A stretch of DNA of 44,829 bases from Escherichia phage vB_Eco_Lzu_P3. Location: the sequence record PQ295796; one strand, given 5' to 3'. The notes beneath the pieces were generated by a model. It had not been told where the DNA came from and did no database searches. It saw nothing but the letters and a program-made list of their open reading frames with translations. Position numbers and translations under genes: made by a program. Below, one piece after another: positions 5,569 through 34,224 of this stretch (positions within the stretch are counted from its first letter, which is position 1; the number at the start of each line of letters is the position of its first letter).

Positions 5569-5615
5569 TTGCATTGCGGATGTTGGTTGCATTATATTGG
5601 TTGCACACCAACAGA
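5569..5615 (+). promoter_or_regulatory. Promoter TTGCAT-N18-TATATT, with two TTGGTTGCA elements flanking and overlapping the -10
   Basis: gcTTGCATtgcggatgTTGGTTGCAtTATATTGGTTGCACACCAACA. The -10 plus downstream element is almost identical to the 16.5-kb promoter. Confidence 0.5.
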
Positions 5616-11755: not shown

Positions 11756-11885
11756 GATATAAGCCCTTTTGTTCATATGTGCCGACCATCGGCAACATAG
11801 GAGACGGCCCTGCCATCTAAGGGGGATTATAACAGGCACAAAAAAGCCCACCAAATCGGCAGGCTGGGAGGCTTACCGGTTGCCG

Positions 11886-13028
11886 TTACTTCAACATTTC
11901 CGGGCTAATGGTTAAGCGCGCTACTTCGCCGTAGTTGGCGCTGTAGGTAATGACGTTGGCGCTGCGACCGGACATCCAACCGCCACGACTGGCGTAGGCG
12001 TCTTTCGCCGCGAGCGTCCGGTGCTGTTCAACAATCATGTTGCGGGATTCAACAATCTTCTGGTGGTGCAAATGGCCTACGTGCGCGTAGCTGTATTCGC
12101 TCGACCCGAACGCCTGTCTGAATTTAGCGATCATAACCTGCTCGATAACATCGAATCGCGCTTTGTGCCCGTGGTGGAAAAATAGCGTAGTCTTACCGTG
12201 CTGCACCATCTTGTAGACGTCCGGGGACGTGTCCACATCGACGCGCGGCTCGTTCTCATACAAGGTATTGAACATCTCAGCAAGCCAAATCATACCGGAT
12301 TCGTCATGATTACCCTGGACGATTAGCAGTTTGACTTTGTAGTGTTTTTGCAGCGCAAGTTCTACGACGTTGCGCACCATGCGAATCATGTAGCGGACCA
12401 ACTTCTGGTACCGGGTGTCGGCGTCCAATACGTGCCCGCTGGCAGGGGTGACGGCATCGAGACTATCAAAGTGGGCCATATCCCCGAGGATGTTGATCAC
12501 GGCAGTGCCTGCGTCTGGTGCGCGTGCGAAGGCTTCGACAAACCAGCGGTAGAACAGGTCTTCGGCGATCGCCATATCCCAATCTTCTCCAGTCTCCTCG
12601 CCCCATGCCAGCATACCCAGGTGGAAGTCGGACACAGTGTACAGGTTGAGCAAGTCGAGCGCCTGGGTATGCTGGCATGGGGCGTTTACTGGCGCTGCCG
12701 GTGTGATTTCGCTGTTCATACCATCGACAACAGCACGCATGGCTTCGAGTTGGTGCTCCTTATCCTGCTCAGTGATGACCCACGACATGACCTCTTCGCC
12801 ATTGCCGCGCACCAGGGCCGATACGCGCTTAACCCCAAACCCATCGGCAACGCGCTTACGGATCACGGCATCATTGCCGTGCCCAATTCCTTTTTTCGAT
12901 AGGCGGGCTTTCCGCATGTAGACGTTACGAAGTGCAATGCCGTATTTCTTCGCAATCTCTTTAACCGTAGTCCCTGCCTGAATTTCTGCGATCAATTGCT
13001 CATCGGTGATTTTAGTTTGCGGGTGCAT
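11886..13028 (-). CDS. Calcineurin-like metallophosphoesterase with N-terminal HTH domain
   Basis: Phosphoesterase motifs are visible in the translation: DFHLG, ILGDMAHFD, LLIVQGNHDE, FHHGH, GHLHH. The N-terminus has an HTH-like segment (TTVKEIAKKYGIALRNVYMRKARL). Confidence 0.6.
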   Translation of the reverse strand: MHPQTKITDEQLIAEIQAGTTVKEIAKKYGIALRNVYMRKARLSKKGIGHGNDAVIRKRVADGFGVKRVSALVRGNGEEVMSWVITEQDKEHQLEAMRAVVDGMNSEITPAAPVNAPCQHTQALDLLNLYTVSDFHLGMLAWGEETGEDWDMAIAEDLFYRWFVEAFARAPDAGTAVINILGDMAHFDSLDAVTPASGHVLDADTRYQKLVRYMIRMVRNVVELALQKHYKVKLLIVQGNHDESGMIWLAEMFNTLYENEPRVDVDTSPDVYKMVQHGKTTLFFHHGHKARFDVIEQVMIAKFRQAFGSSEYSYAHVGHLHHQKIVESRNMIVEQHRTLAAKDAYASRGGWMSGRSANVITYSANYGEVARLTISPEMLK

Positions 13029-13089
13029 ATTTAATTAATTCCTGATTAGTGGACCGTGGACAATATATCACGGTCCGTATGGCGGCGGG

Positions 13090-13170
13090 CTATATCAATT
13101 CGCAAATAACCATGCCGATAAAAGCCGCGGTGGTCCAGATCGCTAATACCCAAATATCTTTACGTGCCAT
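13090..13170 (-). CDS. Candidate micro-ORF encoding a 26-aa hydrophobic peptide (MARKDIWVLAIWTTAAFIGMVICELI)
   Basis: Not in the ORF track because it is under 60 aa. Has a strong GAGAGGAG RBS 8 nt upstream of the ATG, a sigma70-like promoter upstream and a terminator further upstream. Confidence 0.3.
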   Translation of the reverse strand: MARKDIWVLAIWTTAAFIGMVICELI

Positions 13171-13199
13171 CTTTATTACTCCTCTCGTTGATTGGTCGC

Positions 13200-13229
13200 A
13201 GTATGGCGTCTATGTTGGTTGCAAGTCAA
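13200..13229 (-). promoter_or_regulatory. Promoter TTGACT-N18-CATACT (minus strand), with TGCAACCAA in the spacer
   Basis: Lies upstream of the candidate micro-ORF and the phosphoesterase/terminase genes. Confidence 0.35.
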
Positions 13230-13233
13230 GCAA

Positions 13234-13258
13234 TAAAAAGCCCGGAATTAACCGGGCT
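13234..13258 (-). terminator. Intrinsic terminator after the Big_2 gene
   Basis: AGCCCGG-aattaa-CCGGGCT stem followed on the minus strand by TTTTTATT. Confidence 0.55.
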
Positions 13259-13265
13259 TGTTGGT

Positions 13266-13667
13266 TTACTCTGCTGCCGTTACTGTGAAGCCTGCGTCAG
13301 CCTGCACCCCGCTACCGTCGGACGCCACCCAAACGATGCGGACGTTACCCGCAGCTTTCGCGGTGATTTCGCCGGTAGTCGGATTGATTGAGGCGCGGTT
13401 AGGGTTAGCCGACACCCACGACCCGGCTTTGTTGGTCGCGTCGGATGGCAGGATGGCAACCGTCGCGGTGGCTGTCTCTCCAACGGCGGCGGTAACTGGG
13501 TCGATGGTGACGGTCGCACTTGTCACCGGCTTGCCTTCCGGAACGGCCTTATCAAAGACGCCTGAGACATTCATATCCCCGGCCAGGATGCGGCGCGCTT
13601 CTGGGTTCTGCACTGCGGGCAGTGTCTTGATAATGCGTTCTTTACGTCGCAAGATCGAATCTAACAT
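13266..13667 (-). CDS. Bacterial Ig-like (Big_2) domain protein
   Basis: Start moved to internal ATG 13667 (GAGGGGA RBS) so it does not overlap the lysozyme gene. C-terminal region has a Big_2-like pattern (…ATVTIDPVTAAVGETATATVAILPSDATNK…ITAKAAGNVRIVWVASDG…). Confidence 0.45.
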   Translation of the reverse strand: MLDSILRRKERIIKTLPAVQNPEARRILAGDMNVSGVFDKAVPEGKPVTSATVTIDPVTAAVGETATATVAILPSDATNKAGSWVSANPNRASINPTTGEITAKAAGNVRIVWVASDGSGVQADAGFTVTAAE

Positions 13668-13683: not shown

Positions 13684-14175
13684 TTATGCTGCGTTACGAC
13701 CGATTCGCTCGGCAACGTCCCACTGCTTACCATCAAACAACGCCTGTCTGCCGATTGCACGGCGTACCAGACCCTTAAGCACTTCCCCGCCTTGCTTGCG
13801 GAACTGCGGCAGAGTAGCACGGACCTTCGCCCAGTCGCCCAACCGCACCGCATCATCGAAATCATTCGCGACGTCATCCGGTACGATCGGACCAGGACCG
13901 GCGTTGATTACCAGGTCCACCAGCGCGTCGAATTGCGCTTGATTAATGCTCGGATGTGCGTATTTGTTCACCCAGTCCTCGGCATACGCCACATCGCGCT
14001 TGAGTAGCTCCAGCGCTTCTGCACGTGTAATGCTTCGTGGCGGATTAGTGCCGGTGTGCCCATAACCCCAGGTGTACAGGCCGCGGGCCTGCTCTTTCTT
14101 GGTCGCGAAATACGGCACCGGGCTGAAAGCCTCCCATGCTGCCGTAAATCTTAGACCGTTGTCACTGAATCGCAT
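13684..14175 (-). CDS. Endolysin (phage lysozyme, GH24-like)
   Basis: 163 aa with a T4-lysozyme-like N-terminal catalytic region (…EAFSPVPYF…GLYTWGYGHTG…). Start overlaps the stop of the upstream membrane-protein gene. Confidence 0.7.
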   Translation of the reverse strand: MRFSDNGLRFTAAWEAFSPVPYFATKKEQARGLYTWGYGHTGTNPPRSITRAEALELLKRDVAYAEDWVNKYAHPSINQAQFDALVDLVINAGPGPIVPDDVANDFDDAVRLGDWAKVRATLPQFRKQGGEVLKGLVRRAIGRQALFDGKQWDVAERIGRNAA

Positions 14176-14407
14176 GTTTTACCCCATTCAAAACAGCATT
14201 ACGCAGTGTGCGCAACGCAAACAGCCATATTAACGCGGTCCAGGTGGTATCAGATACGTCTCCTGTTTGCAACAATCCGATAATACAGACCATTGCCGTT
14301 AACAGATACAGCACCCGGCCGAAAATGCCATCCCGGACGGACGGCGCATACACGTTAAACAGGGACGAAGCCCCGATGATAACAAACAACAGGACGGAGA
14401 TAATCAT
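14162..14407 (-). CDS. Holin/antiholin-like small membrane protein
   Basis: 81 aa with two or three hydrophobic segments, immediately upstream of the endolysin. G-rich RBS. Confidence 0.5.
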   Translation of the reverse strand: MIISVLLFVIIGASSLFNVYAPSVRDGIFGRVLYLLTAMVCIIGLLQTGDVSDTTWTALIWLFALRTLRNAVLNGVKHAIQ

Positions 14408-14694
14408 TTTGCACCCCCCGGAAGTCGGAACGACGCAATAGTCTCCCTGATCCGGTCGGCGATTGGCATCCAGAAAATTGCGGTCACGAAGCCCAAACCG
14501 GCGACAGTGCGCTCACCCGACAAACCAGCCCACTCAGCGATAGCCGGTGCGCCAAATATGGCACACAGGAAGCCAACTACGACATACAAAACGAAGTTTA
14601 GCGGCCCTTTCGTAGCCTCACCATGAATGCGTGCGCCTACGAAGCCACCCGCCAGACATGCCAGGGCGAATAGCCACTCGTTTAGCTTATCCAT
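14404..14694 (-). CDS. Holin-like membrane protein
   Basis: 96 aa with about three predicted transmembrane segments, in the lysis cassette. The start codon abuts a terminator hairpin and has no obvious SD. Confidence 0.45.
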   Translation of the reverse strand: MDKLNEWLFALACLAGGFVGARIHGEATKGPLNFVLYVVVGFLCAIFGAPAIAEWAGLSGERTVAGLGFVTAIFWMPIADRIRETIASFRLPGGAK

Positions 14695-14746: not shown

Positions 14747-15034
14747 TTAATCGAAAACGGACCACTTGCCGACGCCTTTCCACTCCCATCCTTCCGAGCG
14801 GACGGCCTCGAACATCCGGCCTCCAATCATATCCCGATACCACAGCCACCACATGCGCAACCTGGTCGGGTGCTCCGTGATTCCACGGCGCTTGTATACC
14901 TCGAACGTCATGCGGGTAATGCTGGCGGCTTCCACGGCGGGCCACACCAGGAATACCCATATCGCGCCCAGCACTCCCGTAACCAGGCATAATATGCTGG
15001 CCATACCAAACCAATAAATCACATCATGAATCAT
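14747..15034 (-). CDS. Hypothetical membrane protein
   Basis: N-terminal hydrophobic segment (FGMASILCLVTGVLGAIWVFLVW). Start is uncertain (15034 or 15046). Confidence 0.35.
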   Translation of the reverse strand: MIHDVIYWFGMASILCLVTGVLGAIWVFLVWPAVEAASITRMTFEVYKRRGITEHPTRLRMWWLWYRDMIGGRMFEAVRSEGWEWKGVGKWSVFD

Positions 15035-15253
15035 AATCTGCCCCATAGGTATTTAACCAGACTAATAACCGACGCCAACAGCACCAGGGCCGCCAGACTA
15101 CCGCCACATACTACCGCGAAGACGTATAGCATCGAATTGCCCCTTCCGGTTTGCCAATATGGCGCGCCCACGCACGCGCCACGAAGTAATTGCGAAATAC
15201 CCGACCGCCTATCTCGAAGCGGTTATGCTGAAGCATATCACGGATCGTCGCAC

Positions 15254-15871: not shown

Positions 15872-16137
15872 CTGCTCAGTCTCCAGTGTTTGCCTACCCG
15901 CTCGACTGCGGGCTTTCGGCGTAATGTAATACGTATGCCAATTGGTTGCAAGGACGTTTTTATGGCAAGTCCATGCTCCCTGGCGAACTGGCGCAAGTAG
16001 CGGGTCTGCGTTAATGGCTTCACATCGTAGCGATAGCTCCAGAACACAGAATCGCCCTCAACCGCATTCTGCGCCCATATTCGTATGCAATGCAGTGGAA
16101 TATGCCACGAAAGCTGTTTAGCTCGTCTGCGGTCCAT
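15868..16137 (-). CDS. Hypothetical basic protein (89 aa)
   Basis: AAGGGG RBS 5 nt upstream of ATG 16137. Arg/Lys-rich. Contains a TTGGTTGCA element internally. Confidence 0.4.
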   Translation of the reverse strand: MDRRRAKQLSWHIPLHCIRIWAQNAVEGDSVFWSYRYDVKPLTQTRYLRQFAREHGLAIKTSLQPIGIRITLRRKPAVERVGKHWRLSR

Positions 16138-16465: not shown

Positions 16466-16513
16466 TGTTGGTGTGCAACCAATCTAGCAGGGTGCCAGGC
16501 GGAATGCAACCAA
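16466..16513 (-). promoter_or_regulatory. Promoter TTGCAT-N17-TAGATT (minus strand) with an ATTGGTTGCAcACCAACA operator-like element overlapping -10 and +1
   Basis: Minus-strand read: attaatATTGGTTGCATtccgcctggcaccctgcTAGATTGGTTGCACACCAACAtgaggactgaacaATG. Confidence 0.5.
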
Positions 16514-16668
16514 TATTAATCATGCGCATGAAAAAGTCGATCGCTATCTGCTGTGACTGCAAACTGCATTTTCCGCCCACCATTCAGCAACTCGCATTGG
16601 TTGCCTAGTTCAGTGACGACCGCAATCCGCAACATGCTGCCGTGTATTTTGCAATCCCGGATTTTATG

Positions 16669-19711: not shown

Positions 19712-19740
19712 TTGACTCCCTTCTGCAACCAATCTAATAT
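19712..19740 (+). promoter_or_regulatory. Rightward early promoter: TTGACT-N17-TAATAT, with TGCAACCAA in the spacer
   Basis: Near-consensus sigma70 hexamers with 17-bp spacing at the head of the plus-strand early block. Confidence 0.55.
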
Positions 19741-22365: not shown

Positions 22366-22600
22366 AGTATTCGCATTCTTATTGATGATTATGCTCGGTG
22401 CGCTGGGATTTATCCTGCATTGCGTGCAAGGCGTGTTAATGGTCGCCTGGATGATTCGCCATCCGACACTCTGGCCGGACGATGGGTATAGTGTCGCTGC
22501 CGCCGACTGGGTGGCGAAGAACATAGACCGACCACCGTTAAGCTGGATCGAGAACGCCGTCAGCTACGTGACCAGAAATCTTTTTAATAAAAGTGCTTGA
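22358..22600 (+). CDS. Hypothetical small membrane protein
   Basis: Hydrophobic N-terminus (VFAFLLMIMLGALGFILHCV). GAGGA RBS. Overlaps the upstream stop. Confidence 0.4.
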   Translation: MNKVFAFLLMIMLGALGFILHCVQGVLMVAWMIRHPTLWPDDGYSVAAADWVAKNIDRPPLSWIENAVSYVTRNLFNKSA

Positions 22601-22635
22601 CCGCTTAGGCGCAACCAAGTAGATTAGCAACCAAG
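22597..22635 (+). promoter_or_regulatory. Promoter TTGACC-N17-TAGATT, with GCAACCAAG elements in the spacer and just downstream of -10
   Basis: Upstream of the SSB-like gene. The motif is a variant of TGCAACCAA. Confidence 0.4.
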
Positions 22636-29395: not shown

Positions 29396-29428
29396 TTGGT
29401 TGCATAATCATATTGGTTGCATTATATT
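29396..29428 (+). promoter_or_regulatory. Promoter TTGCAT-N17-TATATT, with tandem TTGGTTGCA elements (29396..29404 and 29413..29421)
   Basis: Read directly, upstream of the gene at 29476. Confidence 0.5.
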
Positions 29429-30617: not shown

Positions 30618-31084
30618 AATTACTGATTTGCGATTTGGATGGCGTTATTAACGGTTCAAGCGATGCGCGTGCCGACTTGGTGCCTGGCATAAAAACTAAA
30701 TCCACCTTTTGGGCGAAGTGGCACAAGGCGCACGTCCGCGAAGACCTTAACATGGATATGCTGCCGCTACTGCGCATGTATAAAGAGCAAGGCTTCGAGA
30801 TCGCGTATCTGACCAACCGGCAGCGAGAATGTTGGGACACCACCGCCGAGCAATTGGAGGTCTTCCCAGTAGGCCGGTTGTTTATGCGCCACATGCTGGA
30901 CGACACCCCGCCGCCTGAGTTTAAAGCGTGCGCCGTGTTCAAAATGGTATGTTACGCGGACGTGTCTGAACTGGTCATCATTGAAGATTGCGAGAAGAAC
31001 ATCGCGGCAATTCGTCGGGCGTGTAGTGATTTGGTCCCGAAAATTTACGCAATAAACGTTGCAAAATTCACTTGCAACCAATAG
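30614..31084 (+). CDS. HAD-superfamily hydrolase (putative nucleotidase/phosphatase)
   Basis: N-terminal motif I LLICDLDGVI (DxDG). GAGAG RBS. ATGA overlap with the upstream gene. Confidence 0.5.
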   Translation: MKLLICDLDGVINGSSDARADLVPGIKTKSTFWAKWHKAHVREDLNMDMLPLLRMYKEQGFEIAYLTNRQRECWDTTAEQLEVFPVGRLFMRHMLDDTPPPEFKACAVFKMVCYADVSELVIIEDCEKNIAAIRRACSDLVPKIYAINVAKFTCNQ

Positions 31085-31101
31085 GTTGGTTGCACTATAG
31101 T
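31072..31101 (+). promoter_or_regulatory. Promoter TTGCAA-N18-TATAGT, containing the inverted repeat TGCAACCAA-N4-TTGGTTGCA (31073..31094)
   Basis: A perfect 9-bp inverted repeat separated by 4 bp, embedded in the promoter. Confidence 0.5.
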
Positions 31102-34191: not shown

Positions 34192-34224
34192 TTGGTTGCA
34201 ATCCTGGTCGAGCGGTGTAATACT
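34192..34224 (+). promoter_or_regulatory. Promoter TTGCAA-N17-(TGt)AATACT, with TTGGTTGCA at the -35
   Basis: Upstream of the lipoprotein gene; divergent from the tail fibre gene start. Confidence 0.4.

Follow-up and report, generated by a model that had tools for sequence, protein, structure and literature searches.

The locus and its elements

Escherichia phage vB_Eco_Lzu_P3 (sequence record PQ295796) is the source of the 44,829-nt stretch of DNA analysed here, referred to as the window, and our subject is a 26-codon open reading frame (ORF) on its minus strand, the micro-ORF, which has the lysis genes on one side and the phosphoesterase/terminase genes on the other. From the 95% identity of this region to Escherichia phages 011D5 and HK578, the window belongs to Dhillonvirus (HK578-like phages). 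The unit that contains the micro-ORF begins where the preceding transcription unit ends: the T-tract of an intrinsic terminator, whose stem is invariant and whose loop varies across relatives, abuts the -35 box of promoter P1, which is followed by a Shine-Dalgarno sequence, the ATG, the 26 codons and a TAG stop (Table 1). This terminator is annotated as such in PTXU06, WFI and WF5505. An earlier note, written from the letters of the window alone, had proposed this succession of terminator, promoter, Shine-Dalgarno sequence, ATG, ORF and stop, and each element is found in its place on the minus strand.

Short hydrophobic ORFs with good translation signals are rare in the window. Its six frames hold 151 ATG-started ORFs of 20-40 aa, four with a transmembrane-grade hydrophobic stretch and two with a 5-mer Shine-Dalgarno sequence, and the micro-ORF is the only one among them to combine both. 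On the comparative evidence given below, the 26-codon ORF is a real, selected but dispensable accessory gene, and by the same sequence comparisons positions 13229..13090 (minus strand) are a self-contained accessory gene cassette of Dhillonvirus, composed of a sigma-70-type promoter P1, a short leader, a strong Shine-Dalgarno sequence and the 26-codon gene.

Selection on the encoded peptide

The comparison drew on 43 ORF-carrying loci, which reduce to 32 distinct contexts and 22 distinct 72-nt cores. Across the 22 distinct alleles, third codon positions of the micro-ORF frame make up 17 of the 29 variable columns, and the changes between alleles comprise 23 synonymous and 16 nonsynonymous ones, against the 21% synonymous expected from random mutation (binomial p = 2e-7). 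Mean pairwise nonsynonymous and synonymous divergence (dN and dS) are 0.054 and 0.72, a ratio of 0.075, similar to the 0.042 calculated over codons 1-100 of the neighbouring phosphoesterase gene; in each of the remaining five frames dN/dS is 0.39-0.88 or stops break the frame. Because the sequences are related and the comparison is not tree-based, the p-value and these ratios are to be read as indicative, not exact. Replacements are mostly conservative (A/T, S/T, I/V, L/M, A/G/V/S), and L074, among the most divergent alleles, has 13 nucleotide differences from the window in 72 positions and only two residue changes, both conservative (T13S, L25V).

The translation signals show the same regime. 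The ATG and an AGGAG core are invariant in all 32 distinct contexts, and the 8-9-nt spacer between them varies. Read from end to end, the intergenic alignment passes from an invariant terminator stem with a variable loop, through conserved -35 and -10 boxes separated by a variable spacer, to a conserved Shine-Dalgarno sequence, a variable spacer, an invariant ATG and then to three-base periodic variation through the ORF, which as a sequence pattern is the classic footprint of a small transcription unit. The earlier note had named conservation of the ORF and its ribosome-binding site in relatives as a check on its proposal, and the outcome is clearly positive, with dN/dS as above and both ATG and Shine-Dalgarno sequence kept. 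Judged by these substitution patterns, the amino-acid sequence of the 26-codon gene is under purifying selection, and in the micro-ORF frame only.

Table 1. Features of the micro-ORF locus, copies of the 9-mer TGCRACCAA, and comparable genes in other genera.
Feature	Position or contig	Strand	Details
Holin gene	14404..14694		lysis block, just upstream of the cassette
Holin gene	14162..14407		lysis block
Endolysin gene	13684..14175		lysis block; followed by a Big_2 or gp57-type gene
Intrinsic terminator	13259..13238	-	AAGCCCGGTTAATTCCGGGCTT + TTTATT; 8-bp stem with 6 G-C pairs; ends the lysis/Big_2 transcription unit
Promoter P1	13200..13229	-	-35 TTGACT 13229..13224, 18-nt spacer, -10 CATACT 13205..13200
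9-mer copy, operator-like	13215..13223	-	TGCAACCAA; directly 3' of the -35 box; conserved in relatives
Second 9-mer copy	13192..13200	-	TGCGACCAA; covers the final T of the -10 box as well as the inferred start site
Shine-Dalgarno sequence	13179..13186	-	GAGAGGAG; 8 nt 5' of the ATG at 13170
Micro-ORF	13170..13090	-	26 codons + TAG; product MARKDIWVLAIWTTAAFIGMVICELI
Imperfect inverted repeat	13051..13076	-	GGACCGTG / CACGGTCC, flanking P2; no U-tract after it
P2, extended -10-like element	13061..13070	-	TGATATATTG (TG + TATATT), for the phosphoesterase gene
Phosphoesterase gene	11886..13028	-	380 aa, helix-turn-helix (HTH) + calcineurin-like; ATG at 13028
Terminator-like hairpin	11845..11865	-	3' of the phosphoesterase gene; 9 pairs, then TTTTTGTG
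TGCRACCAA sites	5583-5605, 13192-13223, 15942-15950, 16474-16513, 19724-19732, 22610-22634, 29396-29421, 31073-31094, 34192-34200
Imm_superinfect gene	L031, L033, L041, L063, L064, L072		Kagunavirus-type contigs; ~75-255 nt 5' of the phosphoesterase start
GTG-started 24-aa hydrophobic micro-ORF	L054 1412-1486 (Cronobacter phage ESP2949-1), L118, L119		VKSFIGVVLAALITWFFVYIVVMQ; Kyungwonvirus-type
ATG-started 26-aa hydrophobic micro-ORF	L073 1407-1487, L117		MWRLFALPFPVIIATAIMYKIIMLGA; Klebsiella phage RCIP0096-like

Distribution and decay of the cassette

A tblastn search with the peptide returned 112 phage records, 52 of them at 99% identity or more, and all belong to Dhillonvirus except two chance matches in single-stranded RNA phages. 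About 110 Dhillonvirus records carry the ORF and about 145 match the surrounding 1 kb, so that roughly three quarters of the sequenced members are carriers. No peptide match was found in 72,556 plasmids (tblastn) or in 5,426 complete E. coli genomes (blastn), and a degenerate DNA pattern for DIWVLAIW run against IMG/VR, JGI metagenomes and GTDB genomes retrieved only Dhillonvirus-type contigs and chance matches inside unrelated genes. One record within the genus-wide matches, OQ221563.1 ("Acinetobacter phage NJ01"), names A. baumannii as its host; it shares 95.7% identity with the region and encodes the identical peptide, and the host label looks doubtful.

The unit of presence and absence is precisely bounded. 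It measures 141 nt, exactly TTGACT...TAG, and lies between TTATTGC and CCGCC; cassette-free phages pass from the terminator (…TTTTTATTGC) directly to CCGCC…TGATATATTG. Its base composition deviates from that of the genome (43.6% GC against 54.6%, within the lowest 2% of 140-nt windows), which is partly explained simply by promoter sequence and hydrophobic codons. The cassette has been lost or damaged in at least six different ways. Sloth-type L011, YD-2008.s-type L012, UAE_MI-01 and TheodorHerzl have neither P1 nor the ORF, Ioannina and L017 retain P1 and have lost the ORF, and in SM_A2 the -35 box is fused to P2. Three further lineages carry a damaged ORF: SO-1 has a 45-nt internal deletion between CCGCCGC repeats that truncates it, HH3 combines a 23-nt promoter deletion between the two 9-mer repeats described below with a TAG>TTG stop loss, and PS2 combines a TAG>TAT stop loss with weakened hexamers (TTGACC, TATACG).

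P1 is weakened or deleted in all three ORF-damaged lineages, as would be expected if promoter and ORF function as a single unit. The earlier note had held that an ORF destroyed while the nucleotide sequence is kept would speak against a gene; this pattern is absent, since SO-1, HH3 and PS2 are damaged in the promoter as well. Its presence in most of the genus, its absence at a precise junction in some phages and several independent decays show that the cassette is useful but dispensable, in the manner of a miniature moron.

Promoter P1 and a recurrent 9-mer

The hexamers of P1 match the sigma-70 consensus at 9 of 12 positions. The earlier note had read TTGACT-N18-CATACT as a promoter, a reading strengthened by 21 distinct relatives, in which both hexamers are conserved and the 3' half of the spacer changes; the -10 box is TATACT in some. 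P1 is also kept upstream where a 70-aa gene precedes the micro-ORF. From the position of the -10 box, host RNA polymerase would start near 13193 and leave a leader of about 23 nt, in whose centroid fold the Shine-Dalgarno sequence is unpaired.

Two copies of the 9-mer TGCRACCAA lie within P1 (Table 1), and both are conserved in relatives, with variable sequence between them. The window contains 13 copies against 1.07 expected, a number reached by 0 of 100 shuffles, and the extended form ATTGGTTGC/TGCAACCAA belongs to the top four 9-mers by count in the genome. The copies (consensus TGCAACCAAT) are mostly paired and situated in promoter-like intergenic regions on both strands; those at 31073..31094 form a perfect palindrome, TGCAACCAATAGGTTGGTTGCA, and a promoter at 22597 on the plus strand has P1-like geometry with one copy in its spacer and one abutting its -10 box. 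Partial genomes of relatives are likewise enriched, at 3.4-6.4 copies per 10 kb. A literature search on the 9-mer found only unrelated primers.

These features indicate that TGCRACCAA is probably an operator or iteron of a phage DNA-binding protein. Because P1 carries two copies of an over-represented and mostly promoter-associated motif, it probably belongs to a phage regulon, in which one phage DNA-binding factor would control it together with about eight other promoter regions, the putative operator giving timed expression of the micro-ORF. Beyond this locus, the 9-mer offers a way into the transcriptional programme of the genus. In a separate observation, one-mismatch copies occur at 16597, 16876 and 16911, and a cluster of five copies at 16.4-16.9 kb could be an origin or control region.

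Cargo genes and transcription beyond the micro-ORF

In several relatives, other small genes have been inserted around the micro-ORF. SSL-2009a, Opt212 and L009 have a 57-aa gene 3' of it, and the micro-ORF is extended to 29 codons; stop and start overlap in SSL-2009a and Opt212 (ATGGCTTTTAA), by 11 nt in the former. A different 56-aa gene is joined likewise in KarlBarth, WF5505 and L074, where the overlapping stop/start is ATGGCTGA. In EK99P-1, L016 and 101114BS4, a 70-aa gene (phrog_16851) has entered precisely at the former micro-ORF ATG and has taken over P1 and the Shine-Dalgarno sequence, and the micro-ORF is retained 3' of it with an overlapping or closely spaced start. Searches assigned no function to the cargo genes (SSL orf66, bas17_0064, bas17_0065 and 101114BS4_007). 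From these insertions around a retained micro-ORF we conclude that P1, as far as gene arrangement tells, drives a mini-operon of one to three genes of which the micro-ORF is the constant member.

Downstream, the phosphoesterase gene appears to have a promoter of its own. The P2 element occurs once in the window, and TG[AG]TATATTG is invariant in 28 of 28 distinct relatives, even where P1 and the ORF are missing; it is probably the promoter of the phosphoesterase gene, possibly with an operator. At the position that corresponds to P2, Kagunavirus and other more distant relatives carry TGGTTAAATA. The inverted repeat that flanks P2 may be either an RNA hairpin or a DNA operator: 77.8% of its cells are paired, 24-27 of the 28 sequences retain its inner C-G pairs, and its outer pairs are often broken. 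Because it is only partly maintained and no U-tract follows, it is not a terminator of the micro-ORF, and no terminator-like site was found on the way from the stop codon (13090) to the phosphoesterase start codon. Transcripts from P1 should therefore run past P2 into the phosphoesterase gene, and the first possible end for transcripts from either promoter would be the terminator-like hairpin beyond that gene. The phosphoesterase itself matches Metallophos_2 and Metallophos and, weakly, an N-terminal HTH, all below the Pfam cut-offs, and is labelled "DNA repair exonuclease" in relatives.

Annotation in public records

Gene finders have passed over the micro-ORF because it is too short and falls below their length limits. 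The earlier note had called it unannotated, which holds for most public relatives and fails for a few records that call the same frame a "hypothetical protein". The only correctly delimited public annotation found is SSL-2009a orf65 (YP_008550178.1, 29 aa, "hypothetical protein"), a direct orthologue with the same P1 and Shine-Dalgarno sequence, in which 22 of the first 26 residues are identical (85% in tblastn) and which is three codons longer owing to the insertion of the 57-aa orf66 with its overlap. Opt212_5, Dru_SM5 XEC67275.1 and CHD5UKE2_025 have the right frame in 46-49-aa forms with an artefactual N-terminal extension, the calls in Opt212 and Dru_SM5 starting at the TTG of the -35 box, and the annotations in HH3 and PS2 are 52-aa stop-loss read-throughs. 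Elsewhere the wrong frame is called, as a 35-aa TTG-started ORF in the +2 frame (Bas84_0066, McMelon CDS0065, 101114BS4_008) or as an antisense ORF (PEC14_9, JL1_4, CEC_Kaz QCO71641.1). The alternative-frame and extended records look like mis-annotations; the substitution patterns support no alternative frame.

Protein collections reflect this. One collection of about 15 billion predicted proteins contains none of the exact 26-aa sequences, and a query with the 52-aa read-through in a large protein database returned only five clusters, all "hypothetical", made up of the 29-aa form or of artefactual 46-52-aa forms. The gene family is undescribed, in that no profile, paper or structure was found for it; in kind it is familiar, being a moron-like cassette that encodes a small membrane protein of a phage. 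A gene present in about 110 sequenced coliphages is thus missing from almost all annotations, which marks an annotation blind spot. Dhillonviruses serve in phage therapy and in studies of defence systems, and presence or absence of the peptide could be the reason why otherwise near-identical phages differ in exclusion, host range or lysis behaviour.

The same slot in other genera

Kagunavirus relatives encode a phosphoesterase about 75% identical to that of the window, and in some of them an immunity gene of 59-68 aa (PF14373/phrog_1039) lies directly 5' of it (Table 1); L021, L027 and others have an unrelated 79-aa gene instead. Since either gene may occupy it, the slot is a variable accessory-gene position across genera. 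Like the predicted micro-ORF peptide, the T4 Imm/PF14373 (Imm_superinfect) proteins, annotated "superinfection immunity protein" in this related siphovirus genus, are encoded 5' of a homologous phosphoesterase gene, are small, Trp-rich membrane proteins and occur in only some members; unlike it, they reach 59-68 aa and have two hydrophobic segments. Homology between them was rejected, the only match being one of 14 residues in BLASTP (E = 0.007, one comparison). The Kagunavirus sequence "MANLFLGW..." was likewise rejected as a micro-ORF, as it is the C-terminal part of a longer Imm-type ORF.

Micro-ORFs of similar size do occur in two other groups, Kyungwonvirus-type phages and phages like Klebsiella phage RCIP0096. 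Both are unannotated, have a good Shine-Dalgarno sequence and sit in a gap of about 90 nt directly 5' of the homologous phosphoesterase gene; the available sequences are too similar for a selection test.

Predicted product and possible function

The peptide consists of MARKD followed by 21 hydrophobic residues, with a basic N-terminus (R3, K4), a grand average of hydropathy (GRAVY) of 1.38 and a best 19-aa Kyte-Doolittle window of 2.13. M1, R3, D5, I6, V8, A10, I11, F17, I18, M20, I22, C23 and E24 are invariant; residues 13-16 vary freely, and the C-terminal half F17-E24 is almost invariant. No lipobox of the form [LVI][ASTVI][GAS]C is present, as the corresponding M-V-I-C has Ile at -1 and cleavage would leave only 3-6 residues. 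The peptide has no match in Pfam or PHROG (E <= 1), nor in NCBIfam or the PDB. Literature searches found no ribosome-profiling or peptide data for Dhillonvirus, and the EE09 proteomics paper does not mention the micro-ORF region. Ksap1 and anti-Tmn, known small proteins of Dhillonvirus, are encoded by different genes.

By the positive-inside rule and what is generally known of small membrane proteins, the product is probably a single-pass inner-membrane micro-protein that acts on a membrane partner. The MARKD N-terminus would stay in the cytoplasm and residues 6-26 would form one inner-membrane helix, N-terminus inside and C-terminus outside, placing the invariant Cys23-Glu24 at the periplasmic edge. 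The conserved C-terminal half would contact the partner, because near-invariance of F17-E24 beside freely varying residues 13-16 points to sequence-specific helix packing rather than bulk membrane damage. AcrZ, MgrB, SgrT and KdpF act by binding and modulating a larger membrane protein, and the mode proposed here, a peptide of <50 aa, mostly a single helix, that modulates a larger membrane protein, would be shared with them as well as with MgtS and PmrR; the genes of such regulators, like the micro-ORF, are routinely missed by annotation. The proposed action would also resemble that of DicB, a small prophage protein (not a helix) that is described as blocking inner-membrane phage receptors (PMC6832061). 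Unlike the AcrZ-type regulators and DicB, to which it has no sequence similarity, the micro-ORF is phage-encoded and confined to one genus.

As to what the peptide does, exclusion of superinfecting-phage DNA, or modulation in some other way of a host or phage protein of the inner membrane during infection, is a tentative suggestion that we regard as possible rather than probable, as is the membrane-active regulator or exclusion factor of the earlier note. Exclusion is favoured mainly on position, since Kagunavirus relatives have an Imm-type superinfection immunity gene in this slot and the Kyungwonvirus-type and Klebsiella phages have other hydrophobic micro-ORFs there. An established parallel is the HK97 gp15 moron (Cumby et al. 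2012, reviewed in PMC3594210), whose product is a small protein of the inner membrane that excludes superinfecting phages. Like it, the cassette is an extra unit with its own promoter and deviant GC between two conserved genes, is precisely absent from some close relatives, and encodes a small inner-membrane protein, here a predicted one; unlike it, the cassette has no terminator and resides in a virulent phage, and its product is far smaller (26 aa) and unrelated in sequence. Under the definition of morons (Juhala et al. 2000; see PMC3594210), presence and absence at a precise junction, an own promoter (at the sequence level) and deviant base composition were all found, and an own terminator was not. 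As it lacks that terminator and published accounts describe Dhillonviruses as lytic, "moron-like" is the accurate label.

A broader and more speculative proposal, about which we are doubtful, is that a regulated single-helix peptide of a virulent phage blocks the entry of competitor DNA or disarms a membrane-bound host function, as one case of a "membrane-peptide slot" that recurs in several siphovirus genera; the other cases would be the Imm-type genes of Kagunavirus and the 24- and 26-aa hydrophobic ORFs of the Kyungwonvirus-type and Klebsiella phages. If true, a peptide of 26 residues would be one of the smallest phage effectors.

Weighing the explanations

Taken as a whole, we consider it probable that the locus is a selected accessory cassette, expressed from P1, whose product is an inner-membrane peptide with a membrane partner. 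Several points weigh against this explanation or parts of it. The gene is missing from about a quarter of the genus, and constraint on the peptide is not absolute, as single alleles have W12R, G19D or stop-loss extensions of 26 residues. The compared sequences being related, the pairwise dN/dS values are non-independent and carry no tree correction. P1-like hexamers occur at chance frequency in a promoter scan, with three sites in 5 kb against 3.4 expected. The functional assignment draws only on hydrophobicity, the pattern of residue conservation and position; no homology to Imm-type immunity proteins was found (no Pfam match, and an hhalign probability of 0.8% against the Kagunavirus members), nor any paper on the 26-codon ORF in the literature. 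Finally, Dhillonviruses are virulent, so the classical rationale for morons, expression from a prophage, is inapplicable.

Four other accounts were set against it, two of which accept a functional peptide. A role in the timing of lysis, with the peptide serving as an antiholin-like helix or otherwise modulating the pair of holins encoded upstream, is unlikely. The cassette directly follows the lysis block and its product would be a single transmembrane helix with a conserved face, but a strong terminator stands between block and cassette, the cassette brings its own promoter, a paralogue comparison within the window detected no similarity of the peptide to the holins or any other product, and relatives without the micro-ORF keep the same lysis cassette. 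A little less likely again is a poison that depolarises or permeabilises the inner membrane in host shut-off, in the manner of type I toxins. The peptide resembles ShoB (26 aa), Ibs, TisB and DinQ in length, hydrophobicity and strong translation signals, having a strong Shine-Dalgarno sequence, and it has its own promoter. Unlike those toxins, however, it shows no sign of an antisense RNA, with no plus-strand promoter-like site in 13000..13300; its charges are N-terminal, not C-terminal; no NCBIfam or PADLOC-independent family and no Rfam model above threshold matches; and the near-invariant C-terminal half next to free residues 13-16 suggests a specific contact surface.

The remaining two accounts dispense with the product. 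In one, the ORF is a cis-acting upstream ORF or leader whose translation tunes the phosphoesterase by coupling or attenuation. It has the orientation of that gene, ends 61 nt upstream of it with no terminator between and is followed by the hairpin-like inverted repeat 3' of its stop codon, and in the Klebsiella-phage analogue the micro-ORF stop is 1 nt from the phosphoesterase ATG. We nevertheless judge this improbable: throughout the ORF it is the encoded amino acids that are under selection, the phosphoesterase gene has its own invariant extended -10 element and would be expressed without the ORF in the relatives that lack it, and cargo genes of 56-70 aa can be inserted between ORF and P2. 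Nor does RNA structure favour a leader, since there is no U-tract, the fold has no excess stability (z = 0.38) and the Rfam matches are sub-threshold only and centred on the upstream terminator. Least credible, and in our view very nearly excluded, is that there is no gene here, only a chance frame in a conserved promoter/leader region or small RNA, or that the true gene lies in another frame or strand. Annotators have chosen different frames, the +2 frame (35 aa) is open in all relatives and the region is highly conserved at the nucleotide level. Yet the alternative frames show 5-7 synonymous against 31-33 nonsynonymous changes, and the best antisense frame 16 against 22, with the dN/dS of 0.39-0.88 already given; the 35-aa frame starts at a TTG inside the micro-ORF and has no Shine-Dalgarno sequence; and no signal of an RNA family or structure emerges beyond sub-threshold terminator look-alikes in Rfam and the unremarkable fold.

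Other genes beside the lysis block

Two further observations concern the neighbouring lysis region. The gene between the endolysin and the terminator (13258-13290) varies across the genus: it encodes a Big_2 protein of about 133 aa in the window, HK578 and Ioannina, and in many other genomes a 53-55-aa protein (phrog_11068, "gp57"), which has an in-frame stop in TheodorHerzl. Just 5' of the holin genes, positions 15031-15171 (minus strand) encode a homologue of the 46-aa HK578 gp53 (…MLYVFAVVCGGSLAALVLLASVISLVKYLWGRL), the most hydrophobic short ORF of the window.

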